Origin: Dictyostelium discoideum
Lineage: Eukaryota
Length of the DNA: 64,000 bases
Assembly (NCBI GenBank): GCA_000004695.1
Contig: CM000150.2
Location: 4,352,001-4,416,000 of the forward strand
Direction of reading: 5' to 3'
Shown here: in pieces, positions 117 through 63,508 of the stretch
Position numbering within the stretch: position 1 is the first letter of the stretch
How the letters are laid out: each line of letters opens with the position of its first letter
Position numbers and translations under genes: made by a program
The notes under the pieces: generated by a model
What the model was told of the DNA's origin: nothing
The model's input: only the letters and a program-made list of their open reading frames with translations
Databases searched by the model: none

Positions 117-623
117 AATATCTTTTCCAGTAATCAATTCAATAAAATAAAATTTAGACCTTTTCCAAATATTCAATTTTCAAAGAAATTATCATTGACA
201 TCAGATGACCAATCACAATAAATTCATCAAAAAAACCCATTTTTTTTTTTTTTTTTTTTTTTATAAAAGCCAGATATCGATTCCAATTAAACTCCACATA
301 AAAAAAAAATTTGTTGATTCTAAAAAAAAATGATTAACTTAACTTATAATCACTAAAGATATTTTATATATATAAAAATAAATTAAATACCTATCTAAGA
401 TTTATGAAATTTATTTTCAATTTGCACCAAATCGCCAAAGAATGGATTTTTTTTTTTTTTTTTTTATTTTGAAATAATAAAATATTAATAAAAAAAAAAA
501 AAAAACAACAAAATCAAAAAGTATAAATAACTGGATTTTTTTTAAATTTTTTATATTTTACTTATACTTTTATAAATTAATTTAATTTTATTACATTTTA
601 ATTCAAATAATAAGCAAAAAAAA

Positions 624-878
624 ATGGCCAATTGTGAAGGTTGTGGTGGTACTGCCTCTGTTACTTGTGGTGTAACTGGTTGTGGAAATAAAGGATGTCT
701 TGGGGCTGATTGTTCATTCATGACAGCTGTTTCAAGATTTACAAATACTTTCAATGCAAGAAATGTTACAAATACAATTAATCGTAATTCTCCATTCGGT
801 GCAAACATGTCAAATACTATGTTTGAATGCAGTGATTGTAGAAATGCCAACTCTTCTTCATCTTCTGAAGACTCATAA
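624..878 (+). CDS. hypothetical small Cys-rich protein (84 aa), single exon
   Basis: ATG at 624, stop at 876-878. Codon composition is clearly less A/T-biased than the flanks. The N-terminus CEGCGGTASVTCGVTGCGNKGCLGADC has 8 Cys in 27 residues. No recognisable family, and no obvious splice donor before the stop. Confidence 0.4.
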   Translation: MANCEGCGGTASVTCGVTGCGNKGCLGADCSFMTAVSRFTNTFNARNVTNTINRNSPFGANMSNTMFECSDCRNANSSSSSEDS

Positions 879-6333: not shown

Positions 6334-6662
6334 TAAAAATTTATAAATAACAATCAGAAAAAAATAAAAATATTTTAAAAAATAAAATAAATTCTTTTTA
6401 ATTATAAATATCCGTTTCTATTTATTTGGAATTAAATTATTTTTATGGGTTTAATGTTTTTATTTCCGCCTTTTTCCATTTTTTCATTTTTCCCCTTTTT
6501 TTTTTTTTTTTTTTTTTTTATTTATTTTTATTTTTTGTTTTTTTATTTTTTTTTATTTTTTTTTTTTTTTCATTTTTTGTGAAATTTTCTTTTTTTTTTT
6601 TTTTATTTTTTTTTTTAATTACGCAAAAGAAAAAAAAAAATAAAAAAAAAAAAACCAACAAC

Positions 6663-7392
6663 ATGACTGTGAAAACCATTACAAAGAAATTGATAACAGT
6701 ATTATGTTTAAAAGGTTGCCATGGTAAGTAATTTTAAATCCTTTTTATATATTTATTAAAAAATCATTTTATAAGAATAAAAAAAAAAAATAAAAAATAA
6801 AAAAAAAAAAAAATATAAAAAAAAAAAAATAAAAAAAACAATAATAATAATGATAATAATAATAATAATAATATATGAATAAATAATTTAAATATTTTAA
6901 TTTTATTTATTTTTTTTTTATTTATTTTTTTTATTTAATTTTATTTTTTTAATTTTTTTTTTTATTTATTTTTATTTTTTTAATTTTTTAAATTTTTTTT
7001 TTTTTTTTTTTTTCACAATTTAAATTGTGTTGTGTGAGGATTTGTTTTCATTCACACTGTTTAAAATATGTAAATTTATTCAAAGTTACACATACACATA
7101 AAAATTAATAAAAAACAAATCCGTTTTTTTTTTTTTTTTTTATAATATAATAACAATAAATTTTAACATACTAACCTATTTTTTTTTTTTTCAAAAAAAA
7201 AATATTTTATTTTTAGGTTCGGGTAAGACTGAATTATGTAAATACTTTTCAAAAGTTGGGTTTACTGTCTTAGATGAAGCATTTTTAGACATGCCAACTT
7301 TTTCTATACCAAATCAATCACTAACCATGGAAACCGTTTGGGTCTCAAATTGGTTTCAAAGATTACTAAAGATGGAGTTAATTGAAAATTCA

Positions 7393-8052: not shown

Positions 8053-8093
<41 letters not shown>

Positions 8094-8096
8094 TAG

Positions 8097-8130
<34 letters not shown>

Positions 8131-8750
8131 AAAAAAAAAAAAAAATCAAAAAAAAATTATCCAATATTTGTTGTGATATAATTGCAACTGAGTTGGGAAA
8201 AAAAAAAAAAAAAAGCTTTTAAAAAGAAAAAAAAAAAAAAAGGGCGCCACAAGTGTCGGTTATAATTTTTTATTTTTTTTAAATTTTTATTTTTTTCAAT
8301 TTTTTTTTTTTTTGTATTTTTTTATTTTTTTTTTATTTTTTTATTTTTTTTTTTTTTTATAATTTTTTTTTTTGAATTTTTTTTTTTTATATAAATTTTT
8401 AATTTTTTTTTTTTTATTTTTTTTTTTTTTTTATTTTTTTTTATTTCCAAATTTTTTTTGGTGACTTAATTTTTAACACACTAAATTTGTGCCACAAAAA
8501 CAAATTCACTCATTAAAAAGTTTTTTTTATTTTTCAAAAAAATTTTTTTTTTTATTTTTTTTTAATTTTTTTTTTTTTTTTTTATAAATTTTCTAGACAG
8601 TTATAAAAAACAATAAAATAATAGTTATAATAATTAAAAATAATAATAATAAAATAACAAAAAATAGAATAAATTATTATTATTATAATATTTGTTTTTA
8701 TATTTATATATACAATCTATCAAATAATAATTTTATATAAATAAATAAAT

Positions 8751-8791
<41 letters not shown>

Positions 8792-8880
8792 TTTATTTTA
8801 TTTTTTTAATTTAAAAAAAAAATAATAGTAAATTAAATATAAATATAAATATTTTTTATTTTTTTTTTAAAAAAAAAAAA

Positions 8881-9880
8881 ATGTCATTAGAACAACAGGA
8901 TGAAACAGTAGTTGAAGAAGAAACAAAAACAAGTTTTGAAACAAATAATTCAACTGCCAATAATACCAACAACAATACAGATAATACATATAAGGAGGAA
9001 ATTTTAAAGAGTACCGAATCTATAACTCGAAATGATGATAAAGTTGATCCCACTTCAGCAACAGCATTAGAAAAAGATATAATAAATAATGGTGAATATA
9101 GTGGAAGTAGCAGTAGTAGTGGTAATAATAATATTAATGGTAGTAATAATATAAAAAATATAGTTATTGAAAAAGTTGAGCAATTAGAAAGAGTGGTTGT
9201 TAATAATAATAATGGTGATGAGAATAATAAAGATATTCACGATAGTAGCAACAATACTGAAGATATTGATATTAGCAAGTCACATATTATAAAATACGAT
9301 AAAGATGAAATGTCAACTATATCTACAATACACTATTCAGATGATGAAAGTTCAAAAGAAAAACAAGATAACATTAATAGTAATAATAATAATAATAAAA
9401 ATAAAAATGAACAAATTATAAATAGTGAGAATATATTAGATACTCCTATGACAGAAGCTTCAGATCAAACAACTCCTTCTGATACACCACCAACTTTAAC
9501 AAATAACACATCATCAACAACTACTACTACTACCACCAACAATACAACAACTGCTGCAACTACTACAACCAATAGCAGAAGAAAACGAAATTCTCTTAGT
9601 ACACCTTCTAGGTATGTACCTTAATATATATATATATATTTTTTTAATATTACATTCTTTTTATACCTTTTCCTTTCTCTTTTTTTTCTTTTTTTCTTTT
9701 TTTTTTTTTTTCTTTTTTTTTTTCAATATATTAAATGGAATAAAGACAAATAAATAAAACTTTTTTTAAAAAAAAACAAAAAAAACAAAACAAACCAAAA
9801 AAACCAAAAAAAAAAACAAAAACCAAAAAAAAACAAAATCAATTTCAAGTGAATTTTATTTTTATTTTATTATATTTCCT

Positions 9881-9925
<45 letters not shown>

Positions 9926-12077
9926 AGTTTATATTTTTACATACTTTTTTAAAAGATTATATATTTATTCAATTTTTTTATTTTTATTTTTATTTTTTTT
10001 TTTAGTGAAATGGATCCAGTATTAGATTCAACATCAGAAAATAATACAACTAGAAAGACTAGAGGTTCAAGAAATTCTAAAAAAGAACCAGAAGAACTTT
10101 TACTAACACCAGAACAAGCAAAAGAATTATCAAATAAAAGTAAAAAATGGATATATGTCCCAATTATTGAAGCAGAAGCCAAAAAAGAAGAAGTTCTTCC
10201 TGCAAAGAGAGATAGAAAACAAGTATTTAACGAAAATATATTTTCATCATCAAGAAAATCAACAACAAAAGGTGGTGAAAAGAAAAATGATACAGCATCA
10301 ACAACCAATACACCAATTATAACAGCACAACAAAATACTACACCATTATCACCAACACAAACAACAACAACAACAACAACACCAACAACAACCACTGCAC
10401 AACAAAATACACCAGCACAAACAGAATCAAAACCACCAACAACCATTTCAATAAATATTAAAGGATCAAAATCACCAAAAACAACTGGTGGTAAACAACA
10501 GAAACCAACTCCACCTTCACCAGTGGTTATATCACAACCAGTAGTCCCATCTACACCAGTAGTTGCTACTACTAAAAAAACAAATAGTAGATCTAAAAGG
10601 TCAACTGCAAACAACAACAGTGAAACCACACAAACACCAGAAGTTGTTATTTCAGCACCAACTACAACTACGGCTGCCATTACAACACCAATAAATATAA
10701 CACCATCTTCTGATTCTGCAACTATTCAACAATTACAACAATCAATTTCAATGTTGGAGGATAAAATAAGATTAATTAGCTCAAATAATAAAGTAGCAAC
10801 CGAAATTTTAAATAATACAATAACAACAACTACAACAACAGCAGCAACATCAGCAATAAAAGATGAAGAAATTATCGAAAATACAGAATTACAAACAACT
10901 TTTACAAAAAGTTCAACTTTAGCACCACCTTCATCAGAAAGAAAATATTCAAATTTATATAGCGATGACGAAGACGATACTGAAATGGTAGATGTCTCTG
11001 TATCAATACCAATACCAATACCAATACCAACACCAACTCAAACCACAACTAAAAAAACAACTTTATCAAAAAAAAGAAAATCGAATACATCAACTATAAT
11101 ACCCACAACAACAATACAACAAGAACAAGGACAAGAACAAGGGCAACAACAACCACCACAACAACAACAACCACCACAACAACAACAACCACCACAACAA
11201 CAACAACCACCACAACAACAACCACCACAACAATCAACTTCACCATCAAAAACACAACAAGAAAATACATCATCAACCACTACTACAACAACCACTACTA
11301 CAACAACAACAAATACAGAAGATACAACAACTGTTATAGATAAAAAGCCAAAAAAGAAACCAAGACATTCAGCTCCATTGATACCACAAATAAAACCAAG
11401 ACTTCCATTGAACGGAGGTTCAAGTGAAAGAGCACAAAGATCATCAAGAGGTAGAATGGGTAAGGCAATGAGAGATGTTGTTTTAACACCAGTATTTAAG
11501 AGATGTTTAGATCTCTTGGAAGAACTTTTTGAACATCAACATTCTCCACCTTTTCTCGTTGCTGTGGATCCATACGCATTGGGAATCTTGGATTACTTTG
11601 ACGTCATCAAGCATCCAATGGATCTTGGAACTATTAAAGCCTCACTTATAGGTGGAGGTTACGATACCATTGATAAATTTGCCGAGGATTGTCGTTTGGT
11701 ATTTTCAAATGCTAAAACCTATAATCCTTCAACAAACCCTGTACATATTATGGCACAAAGCCTCGAAGATGTTTTTGAAAAAGGATTCCCAAAGGTTTTA
11801 ATTGAACCACCTTCACCACCACCAAAGAATGTCGATCAAGAAAAAATTGAAAAACTTTCAAATGATTTAAAAAATGTTACAAAAGAATTGGAAAAATTTA
11901 AAAAAGATGATAGTAATAGTATTAATAATAATAATAACAATAATAATAATTATAATAATAATAATAATAATAACAATAATAATAGTAGCAGTAGTAGTAG
12001 TAGATCTTCAAGTAGAAAGAGTCATAGTAGTGGTAGCAGTAGTAGTCATAGAAGTGGATCAAGTCGTTCAAGTCGTG

Positions 12078-17736: not shown

Positions 17737-22066
<4,330 letters not shown>

Positions 22067-22183
22067 AAAAATAATAATTTAAATTAAAATAATTAAATAA
22101 ATAATAAATAAATAAAATAAATAAATAAAATAAATAATAAATAATAAATAATAAATAATAAATAATAAATAAAATAATAAATA

Positions 22184-22285
<102 letters not shown>

Positions 22286-22787
22286 TCATAATTACATTAA
22301 TATGATAATATATATATTTATATAGGAATACTAATAAACTTTAAAAAATAAAAAAAAAAACTCCAAGTTTTTTTTTTTAAGATATATATTTATAAATTTA
22401 ACTTTTAAGGGGTGTATCATTAAATTTTTTTTTTCATTAATTTTTTTTTTTTTTAAATTAAAAAAACCTTTTGCTAATTAATTTTTTATTTAATTTATGT
22501 TTTTTTAAGTTAAGTTTAAAATGTTGAGTGTTTAATAGTTGTGTGGGTGGCCCATGGAAGGTGATTATCCATTCATCGTTTCTCGTTGTTATAATGTAGT
22601 TAACGGTTGAATTAGATTTATCAAAACAATATCCATTTGAGGAGGATGATGCTTAATTAATTATTTGCGAGATCTAGATTTAGATATTTGCAATAGTAGA
22701 TGAATATTTAGATTTTTTTTTTATTTTTATAAGATTAACTAATTAAATAAATAACAAAACTAAATGATTAAATAATAATATTAAAAA

Positions 22788-22821
<34 letters not shown>

Positions 22822-23991
22822 GGATATTCATTGTAATTATTTTAATTTAATTATTCTAATTTAAAATTCTAATAGAATTGTTGGTACCCATCACCAGTAA
22901 GAAGAGAGTAGGTGACAGTGGATCACTTGTTTTACTCCTGTCACTACAATAGTTTGTTTCATCTATTAAAAATCTTCATGTTACGAGTCCTTTCTGATTA
23001 TTGTTAACAATTTTTGGGAGATAGGATATTAGTTTATTATTGCTTTAGATTGGATTTTGTATATACAGTTTGCCAAAGTCATCGGCTTCCGATTTTAAAT
23101 TGATTCTTTGGAATTGTGATAATCAGCCCTTCTTTATATTGGTTTTTAATGATAAGTGGATTCTTTATTGCATCATTGAAAGTTGATGCATGAACTTTGT
23201 TGTTGTAAATAGATTGCTCCTAAGGTATTTTCCCAGAGGAAGACCATTGGTATGATGCAATGGTCCATTGAGTCAACAAATTGGATGATTTAGAAATGCA
23301 CAAGAAAAATAAAAGAATTTAAAAAATGGACAGTTGACGAAGGTTTTCTTTGAATGTAAGGAAATGTGAGAATTGCTGTAAGGTCAACTTATTTGTTATT
23401 CACATCTACAAATTATATATAAAATAATTTTAAAAGGAAATTATAATTTAAAAAAAACTTTATGGGATTTTATTTCTTAACCATTTTCCCCTTAATCTCA
23501 AAAAAAAAAATAAAATTTTTTTTTTTTATTCTTTGAAATTTATTTCTCAAATATTTATTAGAAAACAGATTAACATAACAAAAACATGATAGATTTAATC
23601 TATGCAAAACATGGGTTAAAAATCTAAATTTAGTAAAATAAAAATTTTTAAAATAAAAAAGTATGAAAAAATGGGAAGTTTTTAAAATTCTTAAAACCAT
23701 AAACTCAAACCTAAAATCTCAAATGTCTTTTTTTATTACCTAATTAAAAAAAAAAAAAATTTCTTATTGTAAATAATGAAACTAATATTAAGTTAAAAAT
23801 TAATATTTTATATTTGAGCAATTTATTTTTTAAAAAAAAAAAAAATTTAAAAATATTTTTAATTATTAATTATTAATTATTATTATTATTAATTATTAAT
23901 TATTGATTATTAATTATTAATTATTATTAATTATTATTAATTATTATTAATTATTTATTATTTATTAATTATTAATTTTTTTTTTTTTTTT

Positions 23992-25095
23992 TTAAGGAAT
24001 CCAAATTGATAAACATTTATCATAAAATGAACAGCAACCAATGAATTGTTTATCAAAATTATTTTTATTAAAAGACCAATCAACACCATATGCAATAGAT
24101 TTATGAGGACCATTATAGGATTGTTCAATTTGTAATGTTGAGAAATCATTTATATTTTCAGGATCAGTTGATAAGATATGAAAACCACCACCCATACAAG
24201 CGGTAACTAATTTATTTTTTTGAAAAGGATGCCATTTAATACGCCAAATTCCACCACCTAAAGAATCTGTTGTTATTATTGGTTGTTTTAAAGATTTTAA
24301 ATCCCAAATTCTTAAACATTCATCATAACTACCAACTGCAATTAAATTTTCAATAGTTGGATGACAATGAATTGAAGTTACACCCATATCACATCTTTTG
24401 GTAAATTTTGGAGTTGGTGGTATACCAATGTCGTCGTCGTTATGATTCAACAATTGATTTAAATCCCAAATTTTAAATTTACAATCATCACCACCTGAAA
24501 ATACTATTGATTCATCATGATAATTGAATGCACAAATCCAAGCTTCATAATCATGTGCTTTCCATCTTTTCTCTTCTGTTACTTTTGAATAATCTTTTGT
24601 CACTTTAAATAAACCAATATTCCCATCACTAAAACTACAAATTAATTTATCACCACTTTTATTCCAATCTAATGATAATGATAATATATCATTTGATAAT
24701 GAAATTTCTGTTGAACTTTTTAATTCTAATTTCTTTTCAACTTCATCATATTGATAAATATTTAATTCACCTTTTGACATTACAACACCAAGTATTCTAT
24801 CTTTATTATTATTCCATTTCATATCTAAAATACCACTATTAAAATTAATATTTTGAATTTCTTTAAATAATTTATTATTATTATTATTTTCATTATTATT
24901 ATCATTTTCTTTTTGTTGTTGTTCTTCTTCAATTTCAAATAAATATAATTTCCCTTTTCTTCTTTCTTTATATTCTGTATCACCTTTTTCAATTTCATAT
25001 GTACCACATACAAATATATTATTATTAAATGGATAAAATTCAACACTATCTGATGTATAATCTAAATATTTAGTATTTTTTATTATTTCTGTCAT
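23992..25095 (-). CDS. dph7: Diphthine methylesterase DPH7 / WDR85 WD-repeat protein, single exon
   Basis: The 367-aa ORF is collinear with human DPH7. Matching motifs are SVEFYP..FVCGTYEI, ILDMKWN, LSLDW, WKAHDYEAWICAFNYHDESIVFSGGDDCKFKIWD, VTSIHCHPTIENLIAVGSYDECLRIWD, GGGIWRIKWHPF and CCSFYDKCLSIW. Confidence 0.9.
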   Translation of the reverse strand: MTEIIKNTKYLDYTSDSVEFYPFNNNIFVCGTYEIEKGDTEYKERRKGKLYLFEIEEEQQQKENDNNNENNNNNKLFKEIQNINFNSGILDMKWNNNKDRILGVVMSKGELNIYQYDEVEKKLELKSSTEISLSNDILSLSLDWNKSGDKLICSFSDGNIGLFKVTKDYSKVTEEKRWKAHDYEAWICAFNYHDESIVFSGGDDCKFKIWDLNQLLNHNDDDIGIPPTPKFTKRCDMGVTSIHCHPTIENLIAVGSYDECLRIWDLKSLKQPIITTDSLGGGIWRIKWHPFQKNKLVTACMGGGFHILSTDPENINDFSTLQIEQSYNGPHKSIAYGVDWSFNKNNFDKQFIGCCSFYDKCLSIWIP

Positions 25096-27265: not shown

Positions 27266-28433
<1,168 letters not shown>

Positions 28434-31311: not shown

Positions 31312-31766
31312 TTCAATTAGCTCATTTCTCTGATTCAATTAAAGGCGATAGATATTTAGCTGAACATTCACGTTTCTTTACTAGAGAAATGAGAATTTTG
31401 GCTTATAATCAATTTTTAGAATCTTATTCATCTGTAAAATTAGAATCAATGTCAAATCAATTTGGTGTATCTTATGATTTTATTGATAGGTTTGTTGTTT
31501 ATTATTATTATTATTAATATTTTATTTATATTTTTTTTTAATATTAATAAATTTTCTTTTTTTTTTTTTTTTTTTTTTTTTTAATCTTCAGAGAATTATC
31601 ACGTTTTGTAGCAGCAGGTCGTTTAAATTGTAAAATTGATAAAGTTTCAGGTGTCATTGAAACTACCAGAAGTGATGCAAAGAATCATTTATACAAAACT
31701 ACACTTCAACAAGGTGATAACTTATTAAATAGAGTTCAAAAATTATCTCGTGTAATAAATGTTTAA
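30128..31766 (+). CDS. psmD6: 26S proteasome regulatory subunit Rpn7 / PSMD6 (PCI domain). Five exons: 30128..30251, 30404..30609, 30737..31211, 31321..31489 and 31592..31766.
   Basis: The protein is collinear with human PSMD6. Matching segments are [71 protein letters not shown] and [31 protein letters not shown]...[14 protein letters not shown]. All five junctions are phase-consistent (1,0,1,2) with GTAAGT, GTAAAT, GTAATT and GTTTGT donors. Confidence 0.9.
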
Positions 31767-40457: not shown

Positions 40458-41069
40458 CATACTAACAATGAAATTTTAATTTTTATATAAATATTACAGA
40501 TCCATCAATTCTTCAAGATGATCGTAGGTTTCAATTTTATTTATTATAGAGTTTTAGAAATTATTTTGATAATTATGATGATTACATGTTAACACATACA
40601 TATTTAAATTCATACACACATATACATATATATTTATATTATAGATCCAGGTTATCCATTTTCAGAATTAGTAGATACAACACTTCCAGAATTTAGCATT
40701 CAAGAAGTCTCTCGTCATAATTCAAGAGAGGATTGTTGGATTATCATTAATGAAAAAGTTTACAATGTTTCCTCATATGTTTCATCTCATCCAGGTGGTG
40801 ATATGATTTTACAAGTAAATATTATTATTATTATTTATTTATTAATAAATGGTTTTCATAACCATTAAATCATTTTTAATTATTAATTATTATTATTATT
40901 ATTATTATTTCTATAGAATGCAGGTGGTGAATCAACAACTTTATTCAAAGAAGCACCAATGACTTCATATGCACATGTTATCATGAAAGATTTTCATATT
41001 GGATATTGTCGTCATCAAAGAAGATTTGATGGCTTCACTCCAAGACAACATGACGAAGATCATCACTAA
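40160..41069 (+). CDS. Cytochrome-b5-like heme-binding-domain protein with probable mitochondrial presequence. Exons 40160..40367, (40500..40523), 40645..40814 and 40917..41069.
   Basis: The N-terminus MMRFSKLVRCTNSIIKSNQIQRSF is presequence-like. The cyt-b5 core is FSIQEVSRHNSREDCWIIINEKVYNVSSYVSSHPGGDMILQ-NAGGESTTLFKE...HIGY. The 24-nt micro-exon (DPSILQDD) is optional. Both AG|ATCCA acceptors (40499 and 40644) keep the reading frame. The ORF-track extension to 40121 starts at TTG. Confidence 0.72.
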
Positions 41070-63135: not shown

Positions 63136-63508
63136 TTAATATAACATTTGACCCATTGAATCATAAAAACAAATCATTTTACAAAATTTATCAGAATTTG
63201 AAGCAGCTTTAATAAATTCTTCTTTATTCATTCCTTTTTTTTTATTTGACATATTTTCAGCTGAACAAATTGAAAATACATAATTTGTTACACCACTATA
63301 ATCCATACCCAATGATGTACCACATGCAACTGCAACTCCAATTAATTTTTCAACTTCATCAACTTCAAGATGACCACTTTGATCTTTATCAAATAAATCA
63401 AATAAAAGACTTAATTTTTCAACAACTGGTGCTTTTGTCATAATATATAATGATGTTACAAATTCTTTAAAATCTAATATTCCATTCTAATTAATTAATT
63501 AAATAAGT

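Follow-up and report, generated by a model that had tools for sequence, protein, structure and literature searches.

To our knowledge, all non-LTR retrotransposons of Dictyostelium discoideum are TREs, and these elements have been described as strictly tRNA gene-associated. Insertions of TRE5 elements lie head-to-head (in opposite orientation) with tRNA genes, about 50 bp upstream of them (PMC5391098, PMC5006619). [quoted passage not shown] In D. purpureum, only TRE3-like TREs have been reported (PMC5006619). The TRE3 group (TRE3-A to TRE3-D) belongs to the L1-like clade.

Class I RNA, including DdR-30, is reportedly to be traced to Avesson et al. 2011 together with Kjellin et al. 2021. The published DdR-30 locus is DDB0232428 (chromosome 1) 4375329–4375388 on the minus strand; its RNA-seq counts are 194,666–518,737 reads at 0–8 h, with the read coverage flagged as positive, and show high expression (PMC7919456). 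The T-run terminators led Kjellin et al. to consider that Class I genes are possibly transcribed by Pol III (PMC7919456).

Here, we describe a block of about 950 nt located between two convergent genes in a 64-kb window of D. discoideum DNA (the whole stretch that was analysed, 64,000 nt). The block very probably consists of a live DdR-30 gene and dead TRE3-type mobile DNA. The coordinates of its features are collected in Table 1.

Table 1. Features of the intergenic block and its flanks, in positions of the 64-kb window; HSPs are tblastn matches of the P0001 protein.
Feature	Position	Strand	Remarks
LRR-PP2C gene ORF	18956-22066	+	stop at 22066 bounds the intergenic region on the left
Sub-block A	22500-22700		30% GC; core ~22556-22690 specific to D. 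discoideum sensu stricto
AT-rich spacer	22701-22869		7.7% GC; T29 run at 22793-22821 (A29 on the minus strand)
RT relic, probable full extent (sub-block B)	~22870-23305	-	32% GC throughout; the FIZ shared flank ends at ~23306; boundaries inferred
RT relic, solid core	22889-23189	-	collinear with P0003 residues 324-502; three frames, one in-frame stop, ~67-codon deletion
HSP 4	22933-22889	-	P0001 residues 314-328; 73% identity
HSP 3	23041-22937	-	P0001 residues 205-246; 45% identity, one in-frame stop
HSP 2	23106-23032	-	P0001 residues 182-206; 72% identity
HSP 1	23189-23106	-	P0001 residues 150-177; 68% identity
T6 run, likely Pol III terminator	23321-23326	-	4 nt past the RNA 3' end
DdR-30 mature RNA	23331..23388	-	58 nt, GUUGACCUUACAGCAAUUCUCACAUUUCCUUACAUUCAAAGAAAACCUUCGUCAACUG; identity to the published sequence and Rfam RF01414
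TGTG box variant AGATGTG	23401-23407	-	13 nt upstream of the RNA 5' end; 59-60 nt from the DUSE
DUSE	23460-23467	-	TCCCATAA; 72 nt upstream of the RNA 5' end
dph7 ORF	23992-25095	-	stop at 23992; convergent with the ORF 18956-22066

Composition of the Intergenic Block

The product of dph7 matches its D. discoideum AX4 counterpart at 100% identity. The preliminary description of this region had claimed a raised GC content in the convergent intergenic region, a coding-like level of 30–35% GC and the lack of any ORF. The rise itself is real. The mean GC content of non-ORF 200-nt windows across the 64 kb is 15.1% (sd 6.4%), and seven of the twelve such windows with at least 30% GC fall inside the block, which is flanked by sequences with 5.8% GC (22067–22494) and 11.3% GC (23441–23991). 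The coding-like level applies to two sub-blocks of a bipartite structure, 22500–22700 (sub-block A, 30.3% GC) and 22870–23400 (32.0% GC), but not to the region 22495–23440 as a whole, which has 26.5% GC. The AT-rich spacer lies between the two sub-blocks. The lack of an ORF was confirmed: the longest open stretch, put at about 70 codons in the preliminary description, comprises 64 codons on the minus strand (22652..22461) and starts with the peptide quoted there, ASSSSNGYCFDKSNSTVNYIITTRNDEWIITFHGPPTQLLNTQH, and all other open stretches have at most 46 codons.

A search for a paralogue of the block elsewhere in the window returned low-complexity A/T runs only. A spliced protein-coding gene was also considered and rejected: AT-rich intron-like intervals are absent from sub-block B, and frameshifts relative to the homologue break its reading frames.

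Class I RNA Gene at the Right Edge of the Block

The preliminary description overlooked a 58-nt RNA gene located within its own coordinates. The minus strand sequence 23388..23331, GTTGACCTTACAGCAATTCTCACATTTCCTTACATTCAAAGAAAACCTTCGTCAACTG, coincides letter for letter with DdR-30 in the supplement of Kjellin et al. 2021 (PMC7919456). The Rfam model RF01414 (Dicty_Class_I_RNA) scores 54.2 bits here against a gathering score of 41.5, and the full model (positions 1–56) is matched. An earlier Rfam scan of the same region in E-value mode had returned no match; this discrepancy is unexplained, and the earlier result is treated as a false negative. The 11-nt motif CCTTACAGCAA is located at 23373–23383 on the minus strand directly after GTTGAC and is the sole match in the window, even when one mismatch is allowed. 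In the minimum free energy fold of DdR-30, a terminal stem of 6 bp is formed, in which GUUGAC pairs with GUCAAC. The length of the RNA lies inside the 42–65 nt range of Class I RNA.

The DUSE, the TGTG box and both spacings at the locus agree with the DdR-30 entry in the Kjellin supplement (PMC7919456), and the 59–60 nt between the two elements fit the Class I arrangement, in which a DUSE precedes the TSS or a TGTG box by about 60 nt. The T6 run behind the RNA likely acts as the terminator of DdR-30, a role that we assign following the discussion in PMC7919456. When the locus is compared with Class I RNA genes, the 58-nt sequence, the 6-bp stem, the 11-nt motif CCUUACAGCAA, the DUSE/TGTG spacing, the intergenic position and the published strand are all shared, and no difference can be noted: the locus is the published gene DdR-30, and the published reads demonstrate its expression. 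The RNA covers only 58 nt of the block of about 950 nt, or about 140 nt together with its promoter.

Two other small RNA candidates picked by eye in the block were rejected. The box C/D snoRNA-like motifs include no canonical C/D boxes and have no Rfam match. The other candidate, a further Class I copy in degenerate form (GTTGAC...CCTTAGGAGCAA), has its motif apart from the stem and likewise gives no Rfam match.

Reverse Transcriptase Relic in Sub-Block B

A chimeric query assembled from all open stretches of the block in six frames matched two D. discoideum proteins with the PF00078 domain. A tblastn search with one of the D. discoideum RT proteins, P0001, revealed four collinear minus-strand segments in three frames (Table 1). 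Residues 247–313 of P0001, corresponding to residues 421–487 of the full-length relative P0003, are absent from the relic. When P0003 was used as a tblastn query against the whole 64 kb, the only matches were found here, with a summed E of 2.4e-17 for three HSPs at 22937–23189; the short distal HSP at 22889–22933 was detected only in region-restricted searches. The top four matches of a family HMM built from 117 sequences and run against the six frames of the window are likewise located here and are collinear. Pfam RVT_1 gives a sub-threshold score on the stitched relic peptide (14.4 bits, E 0.031), which is expected because only 110 damaged residues are available. Judged by these alignments, sub-block B is a frameshifted and internally deleted fragment of the RT of a non-LTR retrotransposon.

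The surviving relic spans about 180 codons' worth of ORF2. No match to an APE domain, a zinc finger, ORF1 or a 3' UTR was found in it, and only part of the RT region survives. A target-site duplication cannot be recognised, and the ends of the relic are bracketed only by means of relic-free relatives (at about 23305 and within 22420–22700). The similarity of 23190–23305 to RT is non-significant, with LLTQWTI aligned against MLENWTV. An extension of the relic upstream to about 23280 by this motif is suggestive, as the same motif was picked in four families, but it is not significant and was not adopted. The A29 run at 22793–22821 was considered as a poly(A) tail and found to be uninformative, as the window contains dozens of A/T runs of this length. 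The spacer 22701–22869 may derive from the element itself by decay or from the remnant of a poly(A) tail.

Affinity of the Relic to TRE3

The RT families were typed as TRE3 or TRE5 by genomic context in one reference locus (L006). In this locus, an intron-containing tRNA gene is followed, 61 bp downstream and in the same orientation, by the start of a P0003-type copy, behind which a second copy lies in tandem, so the P0003 family, placed according to the published TRE3 rules, was taken as TRE3-type. A P0024-type copy with a truncated 5' part is located upstream of a tRNA-Thr gene in the opposite orientation and ends 49 bp from it; because this upstream and opposite placement fits the published rules, the P0024 family was taken as TRE5-type. 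The nearest relative of P0001 outside D. discoideum is a D. purpureum protein with 67% identity.

The four HSPs of the relic, 110 aa with 61% identity to P0003, sum up to 146 bits against this TRE3-behaving family, the closest one, 140 bits against P0005 and 52 bits against the TRE5-type P0024 family. Because the scores against P0003 and P0005 far exceed that against P0024, the relic is assigned to TRE3; on sequence comparison, it is TRE3-like rather than TRE5-like. Nucleotide alignments gave identities of 67% and 78% with a copy of the P0003 type and of 72% and 80% with one of the P0005 type (67–80% overall). With 67–72% nucleotide identity to these two TRE3-type copies, no named subfamily can be given for the relic.

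The arrangement of the locus can also be compared with the known elements. The relic lies on the strand of DdR-30, and its start is located between about 25 nt (the end of the flank shared with FIZ) and about 142 nt (the first significant RT match) past the RNA 3' end. The relic thus follows a small RNA gene with probable Pol III transcription and shares its orientation, which is the geometry of TRE3 at tRNA genes. Like many non-LTR copies, the relic is 5'-incomplete. The differences from TRE3 are that the landmark is a Class I RNA gene, with no tRNA gene and no internal or external B box, and that the relic lacks an APE domain, a zinc finger, a 3' UTR and a clear poly(A) tail and is damaged by frameshifts, a stop and a deletion. 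TRE5 elements (e.g., TRE5-A) belong to the same superfamily as the relic, have RT motifs in common with it and target Pol III genes; however, they insert upstream in the opposite orientation, whereas the relic is downstream in the same orientation. A complete TRE3 has two ORFs, with APE, RT and zinc-finger domains in ORF2, a 3' UTR and an oligo(A) tail; as such losses are expected in a relic, the copy is filed as TRE3-derived debris and not as an element. No tRNA gene was found in the 64-kb window, and no B box with up to two mismatches was found either in 22000–24000 or in the six orthologous intergenic regions.

Orthologous Loci in Other Assemblies

The syntenic regions of six other assemblies were located through the dph7 orthologues. 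The genomes of D. discoideum FIR and FIW, which are about 90% identical to AX4 across the intergenic region, keep the DdR-30 orthologue, a short RT remnant only and sub-block A (85% identity). Their RT remnant consists of PKKGDPEPF*NRK and LENCIYKIY. Because the KKGDPE motif, lost in AX4, is retained in FIR and FIW, the remnants decayed independently from one ancestral copy.

No RT remnant was found at the other four loci. In D. cf. discoideum FIZ, the Class I orthologue is intact, the flank is shared with AX4 only up to about 23306, and only the distal end of sub-block A (about 22470–22555) is present. D. cf. discoideum FIY has a truncated pseudo-Class I gene and no sub-block A. The D. citrinum locus contains an intact Class I gene in the same place with a different variable region, and sub-block A is absent. 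In D. dimigraforme, both the Class I gene and sub-block A are absent; homology to the window ends at 23988 and restarts at 22405.

The DUSE and the TGTG box are kept in all intact Class I orthologues, and the core CCCAYAA is located at −78 to −80 in five orthologous loci; the terminator run varies from T6 to T9. In the simplest history, the Class I gene predates the split of D. discoideum and D. citrinum, and D. discoideum sensu stricto is the only lineage that the TRE3-like copy entered, or at least the only one in which it survives; deletions have been eroding it since. Instead of a gain in D. discoideum, the relic may have been lost from D. citrinum and D. cf. discoideum.

Sub-Block A

The core of sub-block A is confined to the three lineages of D. 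discoideum in which the RT remnant is present as well and is missing from the D. cf. discoideum, D. citrinum and D. dimigraforme loci. An exhaustive phmmer search with the 64-codon frame against 1.84 billion representatives returned no match. No similarity was found between sub-block A and the TRE ORF2 proteins or two TRE3-type loci, ORF1 and UTRs included. Sub-block A has no Rfam match, its fold z-scores (−1.65 and −0.92) show no excess over shuffles, and no DUSE is present in front of it on either strand.

Two further candidates for the origin of sub-block A were rejected. A continuation of the RT, suggested by eye from ATSSKLNIDKSSS against ASSSSNGYCFDKSNS and NELINYCNDKRINGIITLY against NYIITTRNDEWIITFH, gives Smith–Waterman scores not exceeding the shuffle mean and no HMM match. 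When the core was compared with the DNA right after the Class I gene of FIZ, 75 of 500 shuffles scored as well. Because of its co-occurrence with the RT remnant, sub-block A is treated as the same debris; we assign it to the relic tentatively and only on its presence in the same lineages, and an unrelated indel would explain it equally well.

Discussion

The preliminary description had offered a long or structured ncRNA gene, a decayed pseudogene and a degenerate transposon fragment as explanations of the block. The last one is borne out for the largest part, as sub-block B proved to be TRE-type RT debris; the comparison with TRE repeats proposed there, run with D. discoideum RT proteins and element copies, revealed this homology. 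The Rfam scan, also proposed there, detected RF01414 at the right edge and nothing else in the block at E ≤ 5. Accordingly, the first explanation survives in the form of the 58-nt DdR-30, but not as a long or structured RNA over 0.9 kb. It is highly improbable that the whole block is such a gene, either independent or an extension of DdR-30. The raised GC content without an ORF and a bona fide ncRNA promoter, the DUSE, at the upstream end on the minus strand would suit it; however, the RNA driven by this DUSE ends at the T6 run, the folding of sub-block A and the RT-coding origin of sub-block B do not agree with it, and in the closest relatives the block is missing or mostly deleted, while the Class I gene is retained. 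The elevated GC content is read here as fossil coding composition and not as a long ncRNA. For a pseudogene, no evidence was obtained apart from the transposon ORF. The coding-like GC content and the broken frames of sub-block B would also be seen in a decayed host gene unrelated to transposons, but we regard this origin as practically negligible: the sole significant homologues are retrotransposon ORF2 RTs with PF00078, which form multi-copy families, and no paralogue occurs elsewhere in the window.

The reading of the block as DdR-30 and TRE3-type debris leaves two points on which other explanations carry more weight. Sub-block A may be separate from the TRE3-like insertion, being a fragment of another mobile element (e.g., a DNA transposon or an LTR element) or a lineage-specific small RNA. 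This seems rather unlikely, although it would agree with the lack of similarity to TRE ORF2, ORF1 and the UTRs of two TRE3-type loci, with the 7.7% GC spacer between sub-block A and the RT relic, and with the FIZ locus, where the sequences flanking the core are adjacent, so that the core behaves as its own indel. The results on the other side are that the protein search with the sole long frame found nothing, that no Rfam match, structure signal or upstream DUSE on either strand was detected, and that sub-block A is confined to the lineages with the RT remnant. The second point is the position of the relic. It may lie beside DdR-30 by coincidence, either through a rare untargeted TRE insertion or through targeting to a tRNA gene or an external B box that has since been deleted, and we consider this explanation evenly poised. 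The published rules link TRE3 to the B boxes of tRNA genes (PMC5911963), no B box is present in or around DdR-30, the intergenic region underwent several deletions in different lineages, and the evidence comes from one locus only. However, neither the trace of a tRNA gene in the window nor B boxes in the six orthologous intergenic regions can be found, and the start of the relic about 25–140 nt past the RNA 3' end in the same orientation reproduces the 40–150 bp geometry of TRE3, and, by a rough estimate, a randomly chosen site would be unlikely to show this placement, as the genome measures 34 Mb and contains about 40 Class I genes. That a Class I gene driven by a DUSE can serve TRE3-type elements as a landmark for integration, despite the lack of a B box, is suggested by the geometry of this single locus and seems improbable to us.

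For a block made of DdR-30 and TRE3-type debris, we infer a history in which the time and mode of insertion, the targeting to the Class I gene, the neutrality of the decay and the origin of sub-block A are our reconstruction. DdR-30 already occupied this site on the minus strand when D. discoideum and D. citrinum separated. Later, in the lineage of D. discoideum sensu stricto, a TRE3-type element may have landed behind DdR-30, in its orientation and within a few tens of bases, either 5'-truncated at arrival or losing its 5' part later. Neutral decay, with frameshifts, a stop and the 67-codon deletion, would have left about 300–430 nt of the RT region in AX4, and the FIR and FIW lineages would have independently deleted most of the element. 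The 30–32% GC would then be the residual composition of the ORF2 coding sequence, not yet eroded to the intergenic level of about 15%. Most likely, the relic has no present function.

The finding is mostly ordinary: a decaying retrotransposon fragment, a published ncRNA gene and about 200 nt of lineage-specific DNA. DdR-30 was already known, and a candidate “mystery lncRNA” is removed. In an extremely AT-rich genome, ORF-less islands of coding-like GC content serve in practice to recognise coding DNA that died recently; before such an island is taken for an ncRNA, all of its frames should be compared with transposon proteins. The TRE3-like insertion behind DdR-30 is compatible with Pol III transcription of Class I genes. 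If these genes do serve TRE3-type elements as landmarks, a complex of the Pol III type, or else a chromatin state, that the TRE3 machinery recognises would form on them, and such relics could act as a genomic footprint of Pol III-bound non-tRNA genes in Dictyostelium. The locus thus gives a hint, from a single case, that DUSE-dependent small RNA genes may occasionally be landing sites of TREs, which, if so, would bear on the question of which polymerase and factors transcribe the Class I genes.

Class I RNA Locus in Dictyostelium Relatives

The published 58-nt Class I RNA gene DdR-30, which lies on the reverse strand between the LRR-PP2C gene and dph7, was assigned to RF01414 with a score of 54.2 bits for 23331–23388 both when the whole window was scanned in gathering mode and when 22400–23520 was scanned in evalue mode. 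The evalue-mode scan of 21900–24100 gave no match, though this region includes 23331–23388.

The syntenic dph7 regions of relatives were compared (Table). In D. citrinum, the Class I gene differs from DdR-30 in its variable region and is preceded by a TGTG-like box and, at −80, by a DUSE. The D. cf. discoideum FIY orthologue has a mutated 5′ stem, CTTACAACAA as its motif, and a deletion of the 3′ stem. In D. dimigraforme, several spaced copies of the AAAGTGAAAA(T) motif are present in the syntenic intergenic region (L002 6380–6470), where they occupy the place of the D. discoideum Class I gene and of the TRE3-like reverse transcriptase (RT) relic downstream of it.

Two other stretches can be noted in these regions. 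A fairly GC-rich stretch located 3′ of the D. citrinum gene (L003 6430–6560) terminates in a T6 run (GGGACGACCATACAATTCGACTGGTATTCCAGGAGCCTCTATCAACTTTTTT). It lacks an equivalent in strain AX4 and shows no RT similarity; it may be either an additional small RNA of the Pol III type or debris of some other kind. In the FIY region, a different insertion, ~1.5 kb long, lies between the Class I locus and dph7 and carries an intact 242-codon ORF that has neither Pfam annotation nor RT similarity (L005 6876–7604).

Features located in the window and in the compared loci
Feature	Sequence	Coordinates	Remark
Class I RNA gene, intact	L003 (D. citrinum)	6356–6413	Syntenic with DdR-30
Truncated pseudogene	L005 (D. 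cf. discoideum FIY)	8061–8110	DdR-30 orthologue
Exact WCCCAYAA matches (nine)	Window	2528, 6443, 11101, 27605, 32023, 37946, 49978, 50962, 59248	Besides the DdR-30 DUSE
Further non-ORF 200-nt windows	Window	551–751, 28101–28301, 31551–31601, 37251, 40551–40951, 63151–63301	GC at least 25–30%
TRE landscape	L006	2613–2696, 2758–13330, 14485–15432, 15481–16028	tRNA genes and TRE copies

DUSE Matches and GC-Rich Segments of the Window

With the DdR-30 DUSE included, the window contains 10 exact matches to WCCCAYAA versus 9.4 expected, which is about the chance level, and none of the nine further matches is followed by an Rfam-detectable RNA. The other GC-rich non-ORF windows may represent short exons, other relics or ncRNAs; no Rfam match at the gathering score was found for them in the scan of the window, nor did they match the TRE RT profile.

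TRE Elements and a Transposase Gene in Loci L006 and L007

The reference locus L006, from another D. discoideum assembly, presents a textbook TRE landscape. A tandem pair of TRE3-type copies (period, 5293 bp) begins 61 bp after an intron-containing tRNA gene. Beyond this pair, an inverted tRNA-Thr duplication includes a tRNA-Thr gene that has a 5′-truncated TRE5-type copy 49 bp upstream. In the 10.7-kb L007 locus, a DDE_Tnp_4/HTH_Tnp_4 transposase gene (8512–10153) adjoins the P0005-type TRE3-like element, and ARAGORN found no tRNA gene.

3′ Flank of the LRR-PP2C Gene

(AAT)n/(ATA)n repeats form a long microsatellite immediately 3′ of the LRR-PP2C stop codon (22070–22285), and reading the sequences of two orthologous loci revealed a trinucleotide run at the matching site in D. 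dimigraforme (L002 6760–6950) and D. citrinum (L003 ~6720–6860). A ~340-nt segment of the 3′ flank (22066–22405) retains 86–92% identity; this conserved segment probably corresponds to the 3′ UTR of the LRR-PP2C gene.
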